From the NCBI GenBank assembly GCA_017303715.1, contig JAFLBZ010000014.1:3708-67707 (forward strand): 64,000 bases of DNA. The letters run 5' to 3'. This stretch comes from Rhodothermia bacterium (lineage in GTDB: Bacteria > Bacteroidota > Rhodothermia > Rhodothermales > UBA2364). Below the pieces are notes generated by a model. That model searched no databases. It was not told where the DNA came from and saw nothing but the letters and a program-made list of their open reading frames with translations. Below are positions 1,109 through 52,879 of this stretch, piece by piece (the stretch's first letter is position 1; the number at the start of each line of letters is the position of its first letter). A program made the position numbers and the translations under genes.

Positions 1109-4100
1109 GTGGATAATTTAGGTTATAACACTGGGTATATCGAGGAACTATATAGCCAGTACCTCCAGAACCCGCAGTCCGTAAGTGGCGTTTGGCAGGA
1201 GTTCTTTAAAGACTACCGTCCAGAAGCTACCACACAGGCAAGCGCACAATCACGTGCCGCATATGAAACGGCTGTTGCTACACAAGAGCAAAAGGTTGTT
1301 ACGCAAGACGAGAAGAAAGGCATAGCCCCACCACCGACGCCTCCAGCATCCAAACAAACAGGGCGAGCGATCAGTTATCCGCCGCTACCGCCAGCGAGTG
1401 AGACGGTCTGGCTCAAAGGCGCACCTGCACGCTTGGCAACCAATATGGAGGACAGCCTTTCGGTACCAACGGCAACCTCTTTTTATACGGTTCCTGTAAA
1501 ATTGATGGCAGAGAATCGTCGGTTGATCAACGAGTTCCAGCGAACACGCGGTGGGGCGAAAGTCTCTTTTACCCACCTCATTGCATACGCAATGGTTCAA
1601 GCGCTTAAGAAGTATCCCAATTTATACACCGCTTACCGCTTTGAAGGCGAAAAACCTTGGCATGTTAAGCCCGGGGGCATTAACCTTGGGATTGCGGTGA
1701 GTACCACAAACAAGGACGGTAGTTCGGCTTTGGTGGTTCCGAACATCAAAAATGCAAACGAAAAGAATTTTGCCGCCTTTGTAGGCGCCTTTGATGACCT
1801 GACTAAGCGAGCACGCCAGGGAAAGTTGACGCCCGAAGATTTTGCAGGGACGACGGCCTCACTCACCAATCCGGGGATGATCGGCACGTTTGCTTCTGTA
1901 CCCCGATTAATGGTTGGGCAAGGATTGATTTTGGCTACTGGAGCCATCACTTATCCACCGGAATACCTTGCGCTTCCGCCAGATGAGCTAAGTAGAATGG
2001 GGATTTCTCAGGTAATGGGGCTTACTTCCACGTATGACCATCGCATTATCCAAGGAGCCGAAAGTGGTGCCTTTCTGGCGTACATCGCCAAGTTGCTCCT
2101 TGGGGATGAAAAGTTTTACCACCAAGTTTTCCGCGACTTAGGGCTGGCGCAATTACCGTTCTCATTGGCGACTGACTCAACCTCTGGCGTTGGACGCGGA
2201 ACCTATCATTCCGAGCAAGAGCTTATTAGAAAGCAAGGGCGCGTTATTCAAATGATCCGGGCTTATCGTTGGCGTGGACACCGCTTGGCGGATGTAAATC
2301 CGCTGTGGTATGATCCGCAGTACATTCCGGATTTGGATCAAGCAGAATATGGGCTTTCGATCTGGGATTTAGACCGCTCTTTCTTCTCCGACGGGCTTGG
2401 GGGGAAAGACGAGATGACGCTAAGGGAGATTTTGGACACCCTTTGGGAAACCTACACCCGTAAAGTGGGCGTAGAGTTCATGCACATTGCAGACCCCATC
2501 GAGAAAAAGTGGCTCCAAGACCGAATAGAGTCGCACCGAATGCAAGATCCACTTAGCAATGCCCAAAAAGTCCGAATATTGGATCGTTTAAATGCGGCAG
2601 AAGCATTAGAGAATTTTATCCATACCAAATACATCGGCCATAAACGGTTTTCTCTGGAAGGTGGCGAAACCATGATTCCCATCTTAGACCGTATTCTATG
2701 TGATGCAGCCGATCAAGAAGTGAAGGAAGTGGTGATTGGTATGCCGCACCGTGGGCGCTTGAATGTGCTGACGAATATTCTAAACAAGCCTTATGAGCGC
2801 CTCTTCCGCGAGTTTTCCGGAACCATTGATCCAAATACCATGCACGGATCGGGCGACGTAAAATACCACTTAGGGACTTCCGGAACCTTTGTCGCACCAT
2901 CTGGATCGGAGGTGAATGTGCGCTTGTGTGCCAACCCAAGCCACTTAGAAGCCGTCGGGCCAGTCGTGGAAGGTATGGCGAGGGCCATCCAAGAAATGTA
3001 TTGGGTGGAAGAACACAATAGCAACGTAAACTTCGACCGTGTTCTGCCTATTCTTATCCATGGTGATGCGGCTTTTGCAGGCCAAGGCGTCGTGGCAGAG
3101 ACGTTCCAAATGAGCCAATTGAATGGATACCGCACTGGCGGAACAATCCACGTCATTGTGAACAACCAAATTGGGTTCACCACCAACCCAGAAGATGCAC
3201 GTTCCAGCCAGTATGCCTCAGACATGGCCCTGATGATCCAAGCACCTGTTTTGCGGGTAAACGGAGATGATCCCGAAGCCTGTGTACGTGTCGCACGGCT
3301 TGCAATGGATTACCGACAGGTCTTTAACAAGGACATTGTGATAGACATGGTGTGTTACCGGAAATATGGGCACAATGAAGGTGACGATCCGAGCTATACA
3401 CAACCCCTGATGTATGAGCAAATTAAGCGAAAACGCTCCGTCCGGAATGTATATTTGGAGCTGCTCGTCCGACGTGGAGACCTGACCATAGAGCAAGCCG
3501 AAGCCGCCATGAATGCTTTTCAGGCGACACTACTCTCGGCCTTCGATCGTACCAAAGAATTGCAAGGCTCCAGCGAAAAACCTGCACCCAAACCGCCTTA
3601 TCAATTCCAATACGATACCCGTATTCCAAAAGAGACGGTGGATTTGATCGTCAAAAATCTTTCCGTGTGGCCATCCGGTTTTAATGTACATCCTAAACTA
3701 AAGAACCAATTCCTGAAGCGGGAAAAGACGTATCAAGAAAATGGTACGATAGATTGGGCTTTGGGCGAAGCCCTTGCATTTGGGGCGCTGCTTCTGGAAG
3801 GGCATAAAGTGCGGATTAGTGGCGAGGACTCCCAGCGTGGAACGTTTAGCCATCGCCATTCAGTTTTGCACGACATGACCAATAAAGGTGTGTATGTACC
3901 ACTAAACCATCTCGCCGAAGACCAGGCATCCTATACGGCGTTCGACTCTTTCCTTTCAGAGTATGCGGTCTTGGGATTCGACTATGGATTCTCGGTGGCA
4001 GATCCTTCTTCCTTAACCATCTGGGAAGCACAATTTGGTGACTTTTTTAACGGCGCACAAATTATTTTCGATCAGTTTATCGCCGCCGCCGAGGCGAAAT

Positions 4101-17242: not shown

Positions 17243-17384
17243 GGACAAGTCGGCGGTCTTCACATCTGGCAAGCAACTCGGTTGCAAAATGGATTTTAAA
17301 TTGTTGTTTTAAAACGATCTCTACGGGGCGGGGTTGCACGCAAGGCTAAAAGCAATAGCTTGCCAGAGACGAGAAGTAAAGCGA

Positions 17385-18183
17385 TTAACTCCGTCCTTCA
17401 GGGCGGAGGCATCAAGCAAGAACTACGCATAATGCGATATTAACTCCGTCCTTCAGGGCGGAGCAGTAGGCCCGGAAATAGCCTTGGGCTTTAGCCCTGA
17501 ACGGTGGTAAAAGGCGAATGCCGTGCGCTGGAAACGGTTTTCTACGAAGATGTCACCCCTACGGGGCTTTTCTTTTCGTTTGATGTCGGCTTTCTACGAA
17601 GATGCCACCCCTACGGGGCTTTTCTTTTCGTTTGATGTCGGGTTTCTACGAAGATGTCACTCGCTGGGGCTGGGTTGTGCGTTATCATGGCTAAAGCCGG
17701 AAGGGGTGGCCGTTGCACACAGCCCCACGCTGAAGCATGGGGTTAATATGAAGCCGGAGAACAGGGGACAACGTTGCTCGTCTGAATGTGGACGTAAAGC
17801 AAGCAAAAACAATGATTAACGAAACAGCAATGTCGTCCTTCAGGGCGGGGTAGTAGGCTCCGAAATAGCCTTGGGCTTTAGCCCTGAACGATCCCCAACA
17901 TGTATGCCGTGCGCTGGGAATGGTTTTCTACGAAGATGTCACCCCTACGGGGCTGGGCTTTGCGTTTGATGTCGGCTTTCTACGAAGATGCCACCCCTAC
18001 GGGGCTTTTCTTTTCGTTTGGAATGGTTTTCTACGAAGATGCCACCCCTACGGGGCTTTTCTGTTCGTTTGGAATGGCTTTCTACGAAGATGCCATCTCG
18101 CTGGGGCTGGGTTGTGCGTTATCATGGCTAAAGCCGGAAGGGGTGGCCGTTGCACACAGCCCCACGCTGAAGCATGGGGTTAA
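17385..18183 (+). repeat. mosaic hairpin-repeat array A (two tandem composite elements holding 3 and 4 copies of a ~52-bp unit)
   Basis: Core unit tttctacgaagatg[c/t]cacccctacggggcttttcttttcgtttgatgtcggc starts near 17538, 17591, 17643, 17924, 17977, 18027 and 18079. Each composite is preceded by the hairpin ctccgtccttcagggcggag plus agtaggc.cggaaatagccttgggctttagccctgaacg. Each ends with catggctaaagccggaaggggtggccgttgcacacagccccacgctgaagcatggggttaa. Confidence 0.9.
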
Positions 18184-18391: not shown

Positions 18392-20290
18392 ATGAATCGG
18401 GAAGAGATATTTGTTGAAAACAAACGGCGGAATACAGAAGCACTGCCGTTGGGAACCATTCTTTGTGGACGCTACGAGGTGGGGCGTGTCTTAGGGCGCG
18501 GCGGTTTTGGCGTTACTTATCTCGCATGGGATCAACGCTATGAGGTTGAGGTGGCCATCAAAGAATTTTTCCCCAGTCCGAACGAAACCGGAATAGACCG
18601 CAAGGTGCAAAATGGACAAATCTTACCGGATTTAGACGTCCCCAATCGGAATATCCGTTTGGAAAATGGCCAAGTGGAACCCTTCTCGCGTCTGTTTGCA
18701 CGGGAAGTGGCAAATTTTCAGGCAGAGGCCAAGAAAATGGTCGGATTCCGGAAAATAGCCAATATCGCAACCGTAATAGACGACTTTACCGCACACAATA
18801 CCGCCTATTATGTGATGGAGTTCTACAAAGGGGAAACCCTGTGGGACGTTTGGGAAAAGGCAGATATGCAGCCTTGGTCTTTAAATAACGTGCTCAAGGT
18901 GTTGTTTCCCATGATAAAGGCACTCGAAAAAGTTCATGCAAAAGGACTGGTACACCGAGACTTTAAGCCACAAAACGTCTTGATTTGCAACGATGAGGAA
19001 GACGAAGTGGTTTTGATTGATTTTGGTCTGGCCAAGGCATTGGGCAATAGTGGCCTGATTAGTACCAAGGGGGAATTGGGAACGCCCTTGTATGCACCCT
19101 ATGAACAGCAAAGCCGGATACACAACCATGGGCCATATAGCGATGTCTATAGTGTTGCAGCCACATTTTACCAACTGTTAACCGGGGAACTGCCCAGTCT
19201 ATCGAAAGACCGCGAAGAATACGGGCGAGCGGGATATACCGACCCAATGGTCTTCCCCGAAAAAGGACTACCCAAGGGGCTAAAAAAAGTCTTGGATAAA
19301 GCCATTGCCATTTATCCAAATGACCGCTACCCAACCATGCAGGCATTTCGTGAAGCCATTGAAAATTGCCTTGGCGCCAGCGAAGAACGCTTTTTGAAGG
19401 ACATCAAAGAAGTGCTTGCCAAACCTATTGCCCCACCAAAGCCTATTGTCCCGCCCGCCAAACCCGCGCCAGAACACCGCCCGCTACAGGCCGGAGACCG
19501 CATGGTACACACCTTGGGTGGCGTAACTTTTGCCTTCCGATATTGCCCACCGACAGCAACACCCTTTATGATGGGGGATGCAACATGGGACGACGCAAAA
19601 CCCCACAAGGTACAACTGACCAAGGGTTTTTGGATGGCCGAGACCCCGATTACACAAGAGCAGTTTGCCATATTTGTACATGAGAAGAAATACCAAACAC
19701 AGGCCGAACGAGAGGGTGGTGCTTGGATATGGAATGGAAGTGAGTTCATTAAAGACCCTAAAGCAGAATGGCGAACGGTATATCCCGGTCCCAAACGCCC
19801 AGTGGTAGCGGTCTCTTGGAACGATGTAAATGCTTTTTGTGACTGGCTCTCGGAGCGATTGGGGGTGGAAGCGGCATTACCCACCGAGGCGCAGTGGGAG
19901 TATGCAGCGCGTGCAGGGGGCAAGGGAATGTATGGGCTTAACCACAAAAAACAAGAAATCACAGAAGCAACTCTCGCAGAAGTGGCTTGGTTTGGAAAAT
20001 CACTTGAAATAGGGACCAACGAGGTTGGGAAACTAAACCCCAATGCGTTTGCCTTGTATGATATGCTGGGCAATGTTTGGGAATGGTGTAGGGATGTATT
20101 TGACTCTGATTTTTATCAAGACAATCAAAAAGATCCTGTAAGTTTAACAAAAAATTCATCTGACCGTGTTGTTCGTGGGGCTTCGTTTAACGACTACTGG
20201 CGATACTTGCGTGTTGGGTTTCGTAGCCTCAGCTTCGATAATTTCAGGAACGATAAGCTCGGATTTCGCCCCCAATACATTAAGATTTGA
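18392..20290 (+). CDS. Ser/Thr protein kinase fused to an FGE-sulfatase (SUMF1-like, C-type-lectin fold) domain; DGR target protein
   Basis: 632 aa. Kinase motifs GRGGFGVTY, VAIKEF, HRDFKPQNVL, DFGLAK. Pro-rich linker KPIAPPKPIVPPAKPAP. FGE-type motifs SWNDVNAFCDWL, LPTEAQWEYAARAG, GNVWEWCRD. No TM segment seen. The last ~45 codons are the VR. Confidence 0.9.
   Translation: MNREEIFVENKRRNTEALPLGTILCGRYEVGRVLGRGGFGVTYLAWDQRYEVEVAIKEFFPSPNETGIDRKVQNGQILPDLDVPNRNIRLENGQVEPFSRLFAREVANFQAEAKKMVGFRKIANIATVIDDFTAHNTAYYVMEFYKGETLWDVWEKADMQPWSLNNVLKVLFPMIKALEKVHAKGLVHRDFKPQNVLICNDEEDEVVLIDFGLAKALGNSGLISTKGELGTPLYAPYEQQSRIHNHGPYSDVYSVAATFYQLLTGELPSLSKDREEYGRAGYTDPMVFPEKGLPKGLKKVLDKAIAIYPNDRYPTMQAFREAIENCLGASEERFLKDIKEVLAKPIAPPKPIVPPAKPAPEHRPLQAGDRMVHTLGGVTFAFRYCPPTATPFMMGDATWDDAKPHKVQLTKGFWMAETPITQEQFAIFVHEKKYQTQAEREGGAWIWNGSEFIKDPKAEWRTVYPGPKRPVVAVSWNDVNAFCDWLSERLGVEAALPTEAQWEYAARAGGKGMYGLNHKKQEITEATLAEVAWFGKSLEIGTNEVGKLNPNAFALYDMLGNVWEWCRDVFDSDFYQDNQKDPVSLTKNSSDRVVRGASFNDYWRYLRVGFRSLSFDNFRNDKLGFRPQYIKI
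20156..20279 (+). repeat. DGR variable repeat (VR)
   Basis: 124 bp collinear with 22116-22239. All mismatches correspond to A in the template copy. The core boundary 20162-20279 is firm. The first 6 bp are less certain. Confidence 0.9.
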
Positions 20291-20357: not shown

Positions 20358-20714
20358 ATGAATCCGAATACTCAACCCGTTGTTATTCTTACGAAGTGGT
20401 ACGACTTTGTGTTTTGGATGACACAGAAGGTGCAGCATTACCCTAAGTCCTATAAATATACGCTGGGAGACCGGATTCAAACGCAAATGTTAGACATCTT
20501 GGAAATGTTTGTTGTTGCCCAATACAATAAGGAACAACGAAAACAAACCCTACGACACATCAATATTGCGATCGAAAGACTGCGATATTTAATTAGGTTG
20601 TCAAAAGACCTTCATTGTTTATCAATGGCACACTATGAGTTTGCCGCAAAGCAAATGTTGGAATTAGGAAAAATGGTTGGAGGTTGGGAAAAGCAATATG
20701 CCACGACAATTTAG
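20358..20714 (+). CDS. avd: Avd-like four-helix-bundle protein (DGR accessory variability determinant)
   Basis: 118 aa. Helical and basic, with the pattern W..F..W......PK..KYTLGDRI......IL typical of the four-helix-bundle/Avd family. Sits between the VR and the RT and overlaps the RT start. Confidence 0.8.
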   Translation: MNPNTQPVVILTKWYDFVFWMTQKVQHYPKSYKYTLGDRIQTQMLDILEMFVVAQYNKEQRKQTLRHINIAIERLRYLIRLSKDLHCLSMAHYEFAAKQMLELGKMVGGWEKQYATTI

Positions 20715-22099
20715 CAATTTGTATCCTGATATATGTACTTTTGAAAATCTATGGAAAGCGTTTCGTTATGCTCGGCGTGGGAAGCGTCATAAGCTCGAAG
20801 TCTCGATGTTTGAGCAAGACTTAGAGCGACATCTTTTCGAGATTCAGGAGGCATTAATCTCGCATAATTTCCATTTTCAAGGTTATCGTTCGTTCATCAT
20901 TACAGATCCTAAGGAGCGAGTTATTTCTGCTGCCCCCTTTCGGGATCGGGTTGTACATCATGCCATTTGCAATGTATTGGCTCCTTTAATGGATATGGCT
21001 CTTTTGGAGAATGTATATGCCTGCCGAACGGGTAAGGGTACCCATTTGGCCATTAAAAAAGCTGTGTCCTAAAAGGATTTTAATGCTTAAACGTGCGTTA
21101 TGGGTTAATGAAGTGGAAGCCTACAAAAGCCATTCCCTGCCTCAAGAGCGTCATGTAAGAACTCATGGGATTGCATAAATTCCGGTTTTACAAGGGTTTG
21201 TTCTACTTTTTAATGAGCGGTAAAGCCCCGTAGGGGTGATATCTTACTAGAAATCGGTTTCCAAATGCACAACAAAGCCCCGTAGGGGTGACATCTTTAC
21301 ATGACGAGGAAAAGCTGGTTGATCGTACCAAAGCCATCAATGTTGGCAGAGTCAGCCGAAATCCGGTGGCTGATCTATCCGACTGATTTTTCTAAGGGTC
21401 GCCCTGCCATTATTGGACAACACATCATACTATAAGATAGAGGCGATCACAATAACGAAGCTGTCTAATAGGTTTTTAGATGATCAGGTAATGGGTTTGA
21501 TCTCGAAGTTATTAGCAACATACCATTCCGATATATCCTACTATTTTCGTTTCCCGCAGGATAATTTGTTTGATGCGGCACGTCCAAGAGGATTGCCCAT
21601 TGGAAACTTAACCAGCCAATGGTTTGCAAATTTTTATCTCAATTCTATTGACCGCTTGATTAAGCAAAAGTTGAAATTACCCGGTTACGTCCGCTATATG
21701 GATGATTTTGTCCTATTTGCGGATTCTAAAGAAGACCTTTTTCATGCACAAGAAGAGGTAAAAAAAGCATTGAGTTTACTTAGGCTCCAACTTAATGATA
21801 AAAAAACGCAGATATTTCCAGTGAAAAATGGATTTCCCTTTTTGGGGCTTTACTTACGGCAAGATCGCCTACGTATTTTAAGAAATAACCTCAAGAGCAT
21901 AAAGCAAAGGCTTAGGCATCAAGCAAAAAAAATGCGAAGAGATCAAAATCTACAGCATGTAACACAATCTCTTCAAGCATGGACTGGATATTATGGACGG
22001 AAGCAGTTTCAATACATCTTCGATGAAATTCTTTCTAAACAGAGTTTTTACCGCGATGATTTAAAACAATGCTTCACCTTCACCTTAACTTATGGCTAA
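20698..22099 (+). pseudogene. DGR reverse transcriptase, reading frame interrupted (two ORF pieces, 20677/20698-21072 and 21413-22099)
   Basis: The N-terminal piece has FENLWKAFRYARRGKR, ISAAPFRDRVVHHAICNVL and ACRTGKGTH. The C-terminal piece has RGLPIGNLTSQWFANFYL (DGR-type motif 4) and YVRYMDDFVLF (YMDD). The pieces are in different frames and are separated by 340 nt containing stop codons and repeat units. Confidence 0.8.
21073..21300 (-). mobile_element. insertion within the RT gene carrying two inverted copies of the dispersed hairpin repeat (MITE-like)
   Basis: aaagccccgtaggggtgatatctt (21222-21245) and aaagccccgtaggggtgacatctt (21274-21297) are reverse complements of the array core aagatg.cacccctacggggcttt. 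The spacer ctagaaatcggtttccaaatg resembles the reverse complement of the array spacer. The RT N-terminal frame reopens at 21292. The exact ends are not determined. Confidence 0.55.
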
Positions 22100-22115
22100 A
22101 GGGATTTACCGATAG

Positions 22116-22239
22116 AAATCTAACCGTGTTGTTCGTGGGGCTTCGTTTAACAACAACAAGCAAAACTTGCGTGTTGGGTATCGTAACAACAACAACGATA
22201 ATAACAGGAACAATAAACTCGGATTTCGCCCCCAATACA
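22116..22239 (+). repeat. DGR template repeat (TR)
   Basis: Non-coding copy of the VR, 17 nt after the RT stop. It is adenine-rich with AAC-type codons in the VR frame (caacaacaagcaaaac, aacaacaacaacgataataac). Homology ends at 22240 (C versus T in the VR). Confidence 0.9.
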
Positions 22240-22337
22240 CAAAACATAAATCTCTCCTAACGGTTTGTGCTATGTGTGGTGTGTGTTTTGTCGCTTACGG
22301 GTTACAAAAGTGAGCCATTGTTGTATAGGTAAATTCC

Positions 22338-22370
22338 TGCTTCGACGAAAGTCGAGGCAAAGTTCTTTTT
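22338..22370 (+). terminator. GAAA-tetraloop hairpin plus T-run downstream of the TR (terminator or DGR RNA 3' structure)
   Basis: tgcttcgac-gaaa-gtcgaggca gives a 9-bp stem with one G-T, followed by aagttcttttt. Confidence 0.5.
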
Positions 22371-22416
22371 GGCCCTTATCCTTCGAGATCGGGGCCATTT
22401 TTTAATCCCCAATCGT

Positions 22417-23322
22417 ATGCCGCAGCAAAACCAAGATCAACGTCCCCAAGTATCTGCCCTTGTGTCTGCCCTTTTGCAAGCAATGGAATCCGGCCAAGAA
22501 GTCTATATTGCCAATCTCAAGGCAGTGGTTCCACATTGTTTTAGGATCCATATGCACCATGAAGCCTACGACCAGATGCGCCCCCACTTCACACATTTTA
22601 AGGTTATTGCGATGCAAGAGCTTGATAAGCGTTTAGAGGCTTTGAAAAAACAAGGCATCGGTGATTTTTGGGCTAAAATATGGCGTTTGATACGGGGTGT
22701 TGTCCTCAAACAGCCTTTACCGAAATTGGAAATCTCGACATTGGGGCGATGGGAAATAGAGGTGATTCAGGCATTTGACCTTGATTTGCCGATGGGGTAT
22801 TTGCGCGTGGAGGCTGGTTTTTCCTCGATTGGTAAGCCCAGCTCCCTTTCCGAATCGGTGTTTATGGGCGCTCAAACCAAAGGATTGTCTTTTATGGTAC
22901 AGGGAGATCAAGCCCTAAAAACGGCTCCCTTGGCTGGCGGCATGGCCGCAACAAGTCCATCACCACAAACCGAAGAAGATGTTTTTGCTACCTTGTCTTG
23001 GATGAACCCAGCCACCCAGTCCGAGCAACAATTTCACATCAAAACGCCCTACTTGGCCATTGGGCGGGAAGGTGCATCGGATGCGGAGTACGCACATCTG
23101 CCCGTCCTCCGGCTTTCGGGTGTTCCTGCGGAAATCTCAAGGGTACATGGCTATTTTCAGTATAAGGCCACAGAAGGCACGTTCCGCTTTAAAAACTTGG
23201 GACTACATGGCACAACCATCCTGCCACCCGCCAGAGAAACGGAGGACGGATGGGCGATTCTTGCCCCTAATTGTAGATTGTGTTTAGGAAATAAGTTGTT
23301 TGTGGATTTTGCTCAACGATGA
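22417..23322 (+). CDS. FhaA-like protein: DUF3662-like N-terminal region plus a C-terminal FHA domain
   Basis: The ORF track starts at 22369 (TTG). The ATG at 22417 (MPQQNQ) is preferred. The N-terminal part has VPHCFRIHMHHEAYDQM, resembling the DUF3662 VPN.F.V.LS..DY motif. The C-terminus has FHA-like YLAIGREGASD...ISRVHGYFQY...FRFKNLGLHGTTI. Confidence 0.65.
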   Translation: MPQQNQDQRPQVSALVSALLQAMESGQEVYIANLKAVVPHCFRIHMHHEAYDQMRPHFTHFKVIAMQELDKRLEALKKQGIGDFWAKIWRLIRGVVLKQPLPKLEISTLGRWEIEVIQAFDLDLPMGYLRVEAGFSSIGKPSSLSESVFMGAQTKGLSFMVQGDQALKTAPLAGGMAATSPSPQTEEDVFATLSWMNPATQSEQQFHIKTPYLAIGREGASDAEYAHLPVLRLSGVPAEISRVHGYFQYKATEGTFRFKNLGLHGTTILPPARETEDGWAILAPNCRLCLGNKLFVDFAQR

Positions 23323-23399
23323 AGGGGGATTTTTGCAGGGTTTTAGGACTTTGTTGGGTTGTGATGAGGTTGGTGGTTGGCTTGGGCTATGCACCGCTT

Positions 23400-23885
23400 A
23401 TTACCCGTCGTAGGAAGATGCCACCCCGCTGGGGCTTTTCTTTGTACCGGGAATGGTTTTCTACGAAGATGCCACCCCTACGGGGCTTTCCTTTTCGTTT
23501 GATGTCGGCTTTCTACGAAGATGTCACCCCTACGGGGCTGGGCTTTGCGTTTGATGTCGGCTTTCTACGAAGATGCCACCCCTACGGGGCTTTTCTTTTC
23601 GTTTGATGTCGGCTTTCTACGAAGATGCCACCCCTACGGGGCTTTTCTTTTCGTTTGATGTCGGCTTTCTACGAAGATGTCGCTCGCTGGGGCTGGGTTG
23701 TGCGTTTGATGTCGGGTTTCTACGAAGATGCCATCTCGCTGGGGCTGTGCTTGGTCATGGCTAAAGCCGGAAGGGGTGGCCGTTGCACACAGCCCCACGC
23801 TGAAGCATGGGGTTAATATGAAGCCGGAGAACAGGGGACAACGTTGCTCGTCTGAATGTGGGCATAAAGCAAGCAAAAACAAATC
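23400..23885 (+). repeat. mosaic hairpin-repeat array B (7 copies of the ~52-bp unit plus the same terminal module)
   Basis: Units start near 23409, 23457, 23510, 23562, 23614, 23666 and 23717. The terminal module catggctaaagccggaaggggtggccgttgcacacagccccacgctgaagcatggggttaatatgaagccggagaacaggggacaacgttgctcgtctgaatgtgg is nearly identical to 17688-17800. Confidence 0.9.
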
Positions 23886-24033
23886 CAAATGCCACATTAA
23901 CGCCGTCCGTTTATATGAAAAGTACATCAGGAAATTAACGGTACAAAGTGTCCCGTAAACCACTCTAATCGGCGGACATACCGATGATGCACATAGTTTT
24001 GAGGAAATTAAATAGGGATTAGGTGATTTTATT

Positions 24034-25549: not shown

Positions 25550-26308
25550 ATGGCAGAAGAACTGAGCATACCTGAACAACTGAAAGCCCTGATCCGCCTA
25601 CAATATATTGATGGACGGATAGACCAAATGCATAAATTACGGGGAGATTTGCCGGATGAAATCCGTGACTTGGAAGACGAACGTGTTGGGCTACAAAGAC
25701 GAATTGATAAATACCAACAAGAAAAGCAAGATGGAGAATTGGAGCGCAAACGGATTCAATTCGACCAGCTTGAGAGCCAGTCGCTGATAGAGCGGTATCA
25801 GAAACAGCAAAACCAGGTGCGTAACAATCGTGAATATGACGCATTGACCAAAGAAATTGAGGTACATCGCCAGCGTATTCAAGAATCTAACTTTAGAATG
25901 GAAACGCTAAAACAACGGGACGAGGCCAATGCCATTGCATTAGAACACGTGCTTGGACGGATGGAGCAGTTGGACAATATGGTTGATGGCAAGAAGGACG
26001 AGCTAAATGCGGTAATGGAAGATACGCGCCATGAGGAAGACGCCCTCTTGGAACGGCGTGCCAGTTTAGAATCTGCGATTGATGCCCGCTATCGAATGGC
26101 ATATAATCGTCTCCGCAGCCGTCTTCGTGATGGACGTGCCGTCATTGCCATCGAAAGAGGTGCTGCCGCTGGTTATGCAGTTCCGACTCAACGACAGGTC
26201 GAGATCCGGCAACGGAATAAAGTCATCGTTTGTGAACACAGTGGCCGGATTATTGTAGATCAAGACCTCTTCCGAGAGACGGTAGAGGAAATGGGCACTG
26301 CCGAATAA
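25550..26308 (+). CDS. COG1579/DUF164-family coiled-coil protein with a degenerate C-terminal zinc ribbon
   Basis: 252 aa. L.AL..LQ.ID..ID and long heptad coiled coils. At the C-terminus, where family members carry C..C...C..C, the sequence reads AAGYAVP...VIVCEHSGRIIV with only one Cys. Confidence 0.65.
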   Translation: MAEELSIPEQLKALIRLQYIDGRIDQMHKLRGDLPDEIRDLEDERVGLQRRIDKYQQEKQDGELERKRIQFDQLESQSLIERYQKQQNQVRNNREYDALTKEIEVHRQRIQESNFRMETLKQRDEANAIALEHVLGRMEQLDNMVDGKKDELNAVMEDTRHEEDALLERRASLESAIDARYRMAYNRLRSRLRDGRAVIAIERGAAAGYAVPTQRQVEIRQRNKVIVCEHSGRIIVDQDLFRETVEEMGTAE

Positions 26309-26725
26309 GTATCCAGCCGGACCATCGCCCGATAATTGCGGGAGGAAAGTCCGAACACCATAGGGCAACATGCTTCCTAACGGGAAGGCAACTGCTTGTT
26401 AAAGTTCTTTTGCAAGCGGTTGACAGCAAGTGCAACAGAAAATATTCCCGCCGATGGCCTTTCGGGGTACAGGTAAGGGGTGAAATGGTAGGGTAAGAGC
26501 CTACCAGCACATTGGGTGACCATTTGTGGCTGGGCAAACCTCATGTGGTGAAAGACCAAGCAGTGTAAGTTGCCCCTAAAGGGTGACACGGGCGGCCCGT
26601 CCGGAACTCCTTACACGGGTAGGTTGATAGAGGCGGTCAGTGATGGCCGTCCCAGATAAATGATGGTCTCCCCATTTCGAGCGACCATAAGTGGGCAGAC
26701 AGAATTCGGCTTATAGGCTGGACAT
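26309..26725 (+). ncRNA. rnpB: RNase P RNA, bacterial type A
   Basis: Conserved blocks gggaggaaagtccgaacac, gcaacagaaaa, ggtaaggggtgaaatggtagggtaagagcctaccag and agacagaattcggcttataggctgga. The 5' tccagcc pairs with the 3' ggctgga (P1). The ends are good to about +/-5 nt. Confidence 0.9.
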
Positions 26726-26739
26726 CGTGGTCGTATTTC

Positions 26740-52753: not shown

Positions 52754-52879
52754 ATTTTACCTGACCTCTAAATGATTTTACCTGACCTCTAAATGATTTT
52801 ACCTGACCTCTAAATGATTTTACCTGACCTCTAAATGATTTTACCTGACCTCTAAATGATTTTACCTGACCTCTAAATG
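52754..52879. repeat. perfect tandem repeat, 6 x 21 bp (attttacctgacctctaaatg)
   Basis: Counted directly. Units start at 52754, 52775, 52796, 52817, 52838 and 52859 with no mismatches. The array lies about 80-230 nt upstream of the minus-strand operon start. Confidence 0.95.

Follow-up and report, generated by a model that had tools for sequence, protein, structure and literature searches.

In Thiohalocapsa sp. PB-PSB1, arrays resembling miniature inverted-repeat transposable elements (MITEs) replace the reverse transcriptase (RT) genes at some diversity-generating retroelement (DGR) loci; some strains keep an intact RT, and alongside them live others in which a transposon interrupts the gene (Dore et al., bioRxiv 10.1101/2023.09.22.558884). 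The decay of DGR RTs through MITEs or transposons is already on record, as is the side-by-side occurrence of intact and interrupted alleles, and no new mechanism is presented here. The present analysis concerns a 64,000-nt stretch (hereafter the window) of the NCBI metagenome-assembled genome (MAG) named Rhodothermia bacterium (assembly GCA_017303715.1, contig JAFLBZ010000014.1, positions 3,708 to 67,707), which carries a chromosomal DGR with a broken RT gene. We estimate at about 85% the probability that a non-autonomous, modular, MITE-like element of ~0.4 kb destroyed the RT of this otherwise complete DGR and left it inactive in cis.

As in Thiohalocapsa PB-PSB1, MITE-like arrays lie in and around the cassette and have hit the RT, intact and interrupted strains coexist, and the target joins a C-type lectin (CLec) fold with signalling domains, including a protein kinase. 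Unlike that system, the host belongs to another phylum, the repeats to another family, and the lesion is resolved to the base, with a truncated 382-nt element standing in for 75 nt of RT motif A. With the DGR of Bordetella phage BPP-1 (bRT-Avd, PDB 8ub7) the cassette shares an RT, Avd, a template repeat (TR), a variable repeat (VR) at the C-terminus of a CLec-fold target and adenine-specific differences, but it is chromosomal rather than phage-borne, its target is a kinase fusion, and the RT in the window has no motif A. Cyanobacterial DGRs diversify Ser/Thr kinase-CLec proteins, and degraded DGR remnants occur there near transposases (Vallota-Eastman et al., 2020, PMC7517822); the N-terminal kinase and the C-terminal CLec/FGE-sulfatase domain with its VR recur in the present locus, whereas the RT clade and the host are different, and no base-level disruption of an RT by a MITE is described in that work. 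Copies of the family to which the inserted element belongs have the TA-flanked ends, terminal inverted repeats, short, non-coding and multicopy character and nested insertions of IS630/Tc1-mariner insertion sequences and their MITE derivatives, a superfamily whose TA preference has been described for ISY100 (PMC2170065). The copy in the RT gene differs from them in having no left inverted repeat.

The locus offers a base-resolved case of natural DGR switch-off, in which the active-site motif of the RT was removed and the TR, Avd and target were left intact. Moreover, with its broken and intact alleles it provides a natural on/off comparison by which the dependence of VR diversity on an RT in cis could be examined.

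The replaced segment of the reverse transcriptase gene

The RT is split between two open reading frames (ORFs) in different frames, as the earlier note on this DNA had read them: one at 20677/20698-21072, ending ...GKGTHLAIKKAVS-stop, and the other at 21413-22099. Only the second matched Pfam RVT_1 (2e-14), while the first matched an NCBIfam group II intron RT model and the RT profile described below. The two fragments carry separate names at NCBI (J0L94_08345, "hypothetical protein", and MBN8588320.1, "RNA-directed DNA polymerase"), which serves as a warning for annotation. A protein search with the joined fragments recovered uninterrupted RTs: P0001 with 364 amino acids (aa) and 91% identity to the joined query, whose N-terminal fragment it matched exactly, and P0002, a 357-aa RT of a relative with 79% identity. 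P0148 and P0149 are further uninterrupted RTs of 364 aa. Among GTDB species representatives, an RT search found no relative above 44% identity. P0001 is encoded on L001, a Logan contig of SRR5576004, which was taken as the uninterrupted reference allele. It aligned to the window at 100% identity over 20373-21070 (L001 1-698) and at 99.9% over 21453-23484 (L001 774-2805), and between the two blocks a stretch of 75 nt in L001 stands against one of 382 nt in the window (21071-21452). The RT lesion is a single replacement, in which 382 nt took the place of 75 nt. An insertion of about 220 bp combined with a separate 1-nt frameshift, as proposed earlier, does not fit the alignment, in which homology breaks only at 21070/21071 and 21452/21453; the net gain of 307 nt (3 x 102 + 1) by itself places the C-terminal part in the +1 frame, and no separate frameshift is needed. 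What stood of that proposal is that the RT was broken by inserted DNA carrying two hairpin units. The cassette, which apart from the RT damage is complete between 18392 and 23322, is made up as follows.

18392-20290, plus strand: DGR target gene, 632 aa, with a Ser/Thr kinase domain (Pfam Pkinase, 2.3e-31) and a C-terminal FGE-sulfatase (1.4e-49)/C-type-lectin-like domain
20158-20279, plus strand: VR, at the 3' end of the target gene (its last ~45 codons), a 122-nt direct repeat of the TR
20358-20714, plus strand: bAvd accessory gene (Pfam bAvd, 1.3e-21)
20698-21070, plus strand: N-terminal part of the RT, codons 1-124 and the first base of codon 125, 100% identical to L001
21071-21452, plus strand: inserted element, a 382-nt, left-end-truncated copy of a modular family that replaces 75 nt of the RT
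21453-22099, plus strand: C-terminal part of the RT, codon 150 to the stop, with motifs 4-7 including YMDD, now in the +1 frame
22118-22239, plus strand: TR, the other member of the 122-nt repeat pair with the VR
22369-23322, plus strand: conserved ORF of 317 aa directly downstream of the TR, adjoining the cassette in L001, L002, L013, L017 and L018

The 75 nt lost from the window encode LMKKHQWVLKMDIKKYFYTIDHEIL, that is, RT motif 3 (motif A) with its Asp, and comprise codons 125-149 together with parts of the codons on either side. The stop that ends the first fragment (TAA at 21070-21072) was made by the junction itself (TCC T/AA). Against a profile built from 120 DGR RT homologues, the N-terminal fragment covered positions 1-123 and the C-terminal frame positions 147-359, and nothing in the window matched positions 124-146. 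The best solved-structure match of P0001 was the Bordetella bRT (8ub7_A, E=4.6e-44), in which the deleted segment pairs with ...FLKSDFSKFFPSID and Asp136 of P0001 falls opposite Asp138. From the general architecture of the RT palm domain, we take this residue to be the active-site aspartate of motif A. Since motif A is absent from both fragments, the RT should be unable to work in cis, in agreement with the earlier suspicion that it is now inactive.

In other respects the cassette has the features of a DGR. The TR and VR form a 122-nt pair with 85% identity, and all 18 mismatches fall on TR adenines; a second VR haplotype, B (see below), likewise departs from the TR at adenines. The earlier deduction that the target had been diversified in the past holds. 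An RT of the DGR type lies beside the TR, and Avd accompanies a target of C-type-lectin fold with the VR at its C-terminus. A complete RT ORF with motif A, as expected of an autonomous active element, is absent, codons 125-149 including that for Asp136 being gone. The genomic setting is chromosomal: the nuo operon, RNase P RNA, MFS transporters and a VKOR-thioredoxin gene lie around the cassette.

In communities of bioreactor and wastewater type, the lesion is polymorphic at the level of strains. The window is identical to Logan contigs of SRR13786855 and SRR13786856, which belong to a data set from a photosynthetic enhanced biological phosphorus removal (EBPR) bioreactor (PRJNA704939, PMC8103865). 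The same junctions were recovered from nine sample accessions (SRR20274866, ERZ795033, SRR13786855, SRR13786856, SRR22032297, JGI 3300014348, 3300014349, SRR25212038 and SRR28161539), independently in SPAdes, MGnify, JGI and Logan assemblies. Contigs with the broken allele are L012 and L021 (SRR20274866), L013 (ERZ795033), L015 (SRR22032297), L019 (JGI 3300014349), L020 (3300014348), L023 (SRR25212038) and L024 (SRR28161539); the whole insert is spanned by three sequences, the window, L013 and L024. The insert is absent from L001, L017 and L018, which have in its place the 75 nt encoding LMKKHQWVLKMDIKKYFYTIDHEIL. The earlier note had treated a continuous RT ORF in related genomes as a sign of an assembly artefact; such an ORF was indeed found in these three contigs, but the recurrence of the junctions in nine sample accessions makes it a mark of polymorphism. 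Several contigs break off close to the left junction (L016 with its last base at 21070, L019 and L020 with their first at 21070 and 21074), and these breaks may reflect the branch of the assembly graph expected when both alleles share a sample. L015 departs from the window after ~21346 into sequence with an extra short repeat unit (L015 1220-1270). This tail was considered as a variant insert, but the assembly probably ran on into a different element copy, and the tail was not used as evidence for such a variant.

The inserted element and its arrival

Copies of the element were sought by scanning the insert pattern GGTTTTAYAAGGGTTTGTTC against JGI metagenome contigs, which yielded seven true copies, on L004, L005, L007 (the same contig as L002), L008, L009, L010 and L011; two further hits, L003 and L006, were chance matches. 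In GTDB species representatives, the pattern had 0 matches. At least 5 loci are occupied in contigs of one related metagenome (Ga0209573), with more in Ga0058864 and Ga0058865. The copies range from ~90 to 560 nt, the minimal ~90-nt version being L004 2554-2646, and nested insertions were seen at L004 413 and 2874. No credible ORF was found in the element copies. The module order is the same in L004, L005, L007, L008, L010 and L011: a left end TTGAGCCAGCCTTTAACTT..., a variable number of ~24-nt repeats, a block ...GGCGGATTTTTCTAAGGGCCGCCCTGCC..., a central block with GGTTTTACAAGGGTTTGTTC, one or two of the 52-nt hairpin units, further short repeats, and a right arm ending ...CTATAAGATAGAGGCGATCTCAA. 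Within the family, the hairpin unit is thus an internal module. The general layout is TA/TTGAGCCAGCC...GGCGATCTCAA/TA, and the ends TTGAGCCAGCCTTTAACTT... and ...AGAGGCGATCTCAA are imperfect inverted repeats, flanked by TA at nine of the nine ends examined.

Variable numbers of tandem modules recall the BOX elements of pneumococci, which are modular bacterial repeats. The anatomy (short, non-coding, multicopy, with terminal inverted repeats at both ends of the family copies) is that of a MITE-type family whose TA-flanked ends resemble IS630/Tc1-mariner derivatives, and the repeat family is apparently undescribed. The copy in the RT gene consists of the following parts.

21071-21139, plus strand: left arm, starting at family nucleotide 20, with the left inverted repeat TTGAGCCAGCCTTTAACTT (the first 19 nt) missing; compare TTGAGCCAGCCTTTAACTT/AAAAGGATTGTAATGCTT at L004 413
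21140-21221, plus strand: central module containing GGTTTTACAAGGGTTTGTTC, ~80-90% identical to the copies in L010, L005 and L004
21222-21297, plus strand: two hairpin units with the core AAAGCCCCGTAGGGGTGA, in reverse orientation to the flanking arrays and at the same position as in the L004, L005, L008 and L010 copies
21298-21452, plus strand: degenerate short-repeat segment and right arm, ending ...GATAGAGGCGATCACAA, holding an ORF at 21301-21435 and aligning to the right ends of L004, L005, L007 and L010
21453-21454, plus strand: TA dinucleotide at the right end, the likely insertion target, present in the empty site of L001 (CCTAT/TA/ACGAAG)

The two hairpin units, at 21222-21245 and 21274-21297, share 96% identity at a spacing of 52 nt. 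Relative to L004 413, the RT-gene copy begins with AAAAGGATTTTAATGCTT..., at family position 20, and its right end is complete, GGCGATCACAA followed by TA, so that only the right inverted repeat is kept. A TA is present at all nine family ends and at the right junction in L001; the left flank is deleted at the RT, and an undamaged pair of empty and filled sites was not found.

Most likely, the element inserted at the TA of ...CCTAT/TA/ACGAAG in the RT gene, and a deletion of ~96 nt, simultaneous or soon after, took away the 19 nt of its left inverted repeat together with the duplicated TA and 75 nt of neighbouring RT sequence. The outcome would be the 124-aa N-terminal piece and the frame-shifted C-terminal piece, both without the active-site motif A. 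Having lost its left inverted repeat, the element should no longer excise. The replacement boundaries, the deletion, the element family and the polymorphism are direct observations, while the order of events, transposition and then deletion, and the loss of RT activity are our reconstruction.

Several points weigh against this account. The left inverted repeat is absent from the RT copy, and transposition is therefore deduced from the family rather than seen at the locus itself. A scan of 10 ORFs around the cassette turned up no partner transposase. That the RT has lost its activity is deduced from general knowledge of RT motif A. A single broken RT accompanied by two VR haplotypes, A and B (see below), implies that the VR was diversified after the break, if there was no recombination. 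Finally, an L004 copy is followed by TAACGA, as is the element in the RT, and the last ~25 nt of the deleted RT segment are slightly more similar to the right end of the element than chance predicts (the score was reached by 25 of 5000 shuffles, in a post hoc comparison).

The last two observations also fit a one-step origin without transposition, in which the 382 nt were copied from another element copy by break repair, template switching or gene conversion, with microhomology at both junctions. The left junction cuts the element at an arbitrary place in its interior (family position 20), where microhomology amounts to ~1 nt; an L004 copy, from the same sub-family, shares the following six bases with the RT locus; and recombination in the population is indicated by a four-gamete conflict between the insertion and site 22491. 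However, the right junction coincides exactly with the right end of the family plus TA, as transposition predicts, the 64-kb window contains no donor copy, and the weak similarity of the deleted segment to the right end of the element was tested only post hoc. A one-step copy is accordingly a possible but clearly less likely origin of the insert.

Variable-repeat haplotypes and possible activity in trans

The TR was identical in all alleles examined, and the TR, bAvd and the VR with its flanks were intact. Two VR haplotypes, A (window and L014) and B (L012, L015 and L024), are both linked to the broken RT and differ at 18 positions, all of them TR-adenine sites; a third, haplotype C (L017 and L018), goes with an uninterrupted RT ORF. 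Such a pattern would also fit a DGR that is still active in broken-RT strains, where the RT of another DGR, encoded by the same genome or by co-resident strains, would act in trans on the intact TR, bAvd and VR. A precedent is given by the DGR classes of Thiohalocapsa PB-PSB1, which comprise one complete locus and degenerate loci without key machinery (10.1101/2023.09.22.558884). However, the window holds no second RT: a tblastn search with P0001 across it returned only the two RT fragments. Moreover, each VR haplotype is invariant across independent samples and only three full-length target variants are present in a collection of 15 billion proteins, which argues against ongoing hypermutation.

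Recombination of VR-bearing DNA is a sufficient explanation for the A and B haplotypes. At site 22491, polarised with L002, the derived T is found in an insert-bearing contig (L019) as well as in contigs that lack the insert (L001, L017 and L018), and the ancestral C also occurs with the insert (window and the B lineage), a four-gamete conflict that needs recombination or repeat mutation. In addition, single-nucleotide polymorphisms (SNPs) between A and B are concentrated in the target gene, with 9 in 1766 nt as against 5 in 3194 nt elsewhere in the locus (Fisher p=0.045), so that exchange of the VR by homologous recombination can account for its two forms. Rescue in trans is thus regarded as unlikely, and inactivation of the RT in cis by the element is retained as the preferred reading.

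The identical insertion was found on at least three SNP backgrounds (window positions 21739, 22491, 22845 and 23446; L019, L021 and L023). The conflict of site 22491 with a tree of single origin points to recombination or repeat mutation around the cassette.

Two of the alleles with an uninterrupted RT carry irregularities of their own. In L017 (3207-3224) and L018 (1351-1368), at the place of window 21844-21853, there is a cluster of 6-7 substitutions, all to T. In L017, they turn CCCTTTTTGGGGCTTTACTTACGG into a run of 17 T and the conserved GFPFLGLYL of motif 7, in the primer-grip region, into GFPFFFFFL; a single A interrupts the run in L018, where the peptide reads GFPFFFFYL. This poly-T allele may inactivate the RT or create a slippage-prone tract, and it may also be an artefact (data sets ENA ERZ795034 and JGI 3300014350). 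VR haplotype C (L017 ~1880-1890 and the start of L018, corresponding to window 20189-20193) has a net 2-nt insertion relative to the TR, which frameshifts the last ~35 target codons and gives a 653-aa product ending ...FLKFINFKNFLHFFKC; the target gene itself looks damaged in the L017/L018 lineage.

A dead RT with two VR haplotypes, the poly-T tract and VR frameshift of L017/L018 and the persistence of the wild-type allele in L001 together suggest a speculative and rather improbable extension, namely that switching off the DGR is favoured or recurrent in the population and that diversification continues without an RT in cis. If so, strains would repeatedly lock in a target variant by losing the RT function, and a trans-acting RT, or recombination with RT-proficient strains, would diversify it anew from time to time.

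Remaining explanations and the repeats around the cassette

The earlier note's reading of a motif-3-like segment within the insert concerned a frame that, as it stated, opens again at 21292 and runs to a stop at 21433-21435. The peptide IRWLIYPTDFSKGRPAIIGQHIIL is indeed encoded, although its interpretation as a weak motif 3 with a candidate catalytic Asp does not stand. Its TDFSKGRPAI superficially resembles SDFSKFFPSI of the bRT. The DNA encoding ...WLIYPTDFSKGRPAIIGQHIIL (~21360-21432) is element DNA, also present in intergenic copies (L002 9198-9265 and the right arms of L004, L005 and L010). In an RT-profile search of the three forward frames with filters off, the peptide 21292-21432 obtained no score, and a local alignment of the deleted 75 nt with the insert stayed at chance level (516 of 1000 shuffles reached the observed score). 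The likeness is therefore coincidental, and a degenerate motif 3 within the insert was ruled out by the last two results. The codons of motif 3/A were deleted, not degraded, and the peptide is encoded by the right arm of the element. Despite the reopened frame and the resemblance to the bRT, it is extremely improbable that a ~220-bp insertion and a separate 1-nt frameshift left a degenerate motif 3 encoded at 21358-21432, since the L001 alignment has two breaks only and the peptide is that of a repeat.

Equally remote is an interruption that is either an assembly artefact or an intron-like sequence removed from the transcript: the repeats of the insert do break short-read assemblies (L012 and L014 end at 21212) and continuous-ORF alleles exist, but both junctions were assembled independently, three sequences span the insert, and its exact removal would still leave an RT without motif A. 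Rfam at E<=10 had no match in 20900-21600 or in the L002 copy, and the RNA fold of the insert was no more stable than shuffled sequence (z-score -0.11), by which an intron or ribozyme was ruled out. Removal of the insert does not restore the ORF, as 75 nt are missing in comparison with L001, L017 and L018. With 25 conserved codons gone, neither splicing nor recoding, both of which the earlier note had raised, restores a functional RT, and assembly error, which it had also raised, is contradicted by the nine sample accessions.

Arrays of the 52-nt hairpin unit flank the cassette on both sides.

17535-18120 (17535-17660 and 17909-18120), no strand assigned: left arrays of the 52-nt hairpin unit, tandem repeats
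23458-23733, no strand assigned: right array of the 52-nt hairpin unit, 5.3 copies

The window contains 11 occurrences of the 18-nt core, where chance would predict 0.00, and the flanking arrays match the element copies in the hairpin-unit module only. The units inside the RT (21222-21297) are inverted relative to the arrays at 17547-18059 and 23466-23645, with ~80% complementarity over 76 nt, which bears out their description as reverse complements of the array repeat. In principle, such inverted units could allow half of the cassette to flip, but none of the contigs showed it in the inverted orientation. Further repeat modules surround the arrays (window 17300-17900 and 23740-23910): a 167-nt block at 17672, 18109 and 23742, another of 91 nt at 17413 and 17800, and three copies of a 25-nt hairpin, ATTAACTCCGTCCTTCAGGGCGGAG. 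Composite repeat DNA, as direct repeats, brackets the whole cassette. In the related contig L002, too, the cassette is followed by a tract of hairpin units (2866-3300).

The 317-aa ORF (22369-23322), which has no Pfam or NCBIfam match, accompanies the cassette in every related contig, including that of a relative at 86% nucleotide identity. Further downstream, a bacterial RNase P RNA of class A (26309-26729, 238.5 bits) lies directly after a 252-aa ORF (25550-26308) and was the sole match in an Rfam scan of the whole window at the gathering threshold. An intergenic gap at 52754-52879 contains six perfect tandem copies (100% identity) of a 21-nt unit, ATTTTACCTGACCTCTAAATG.

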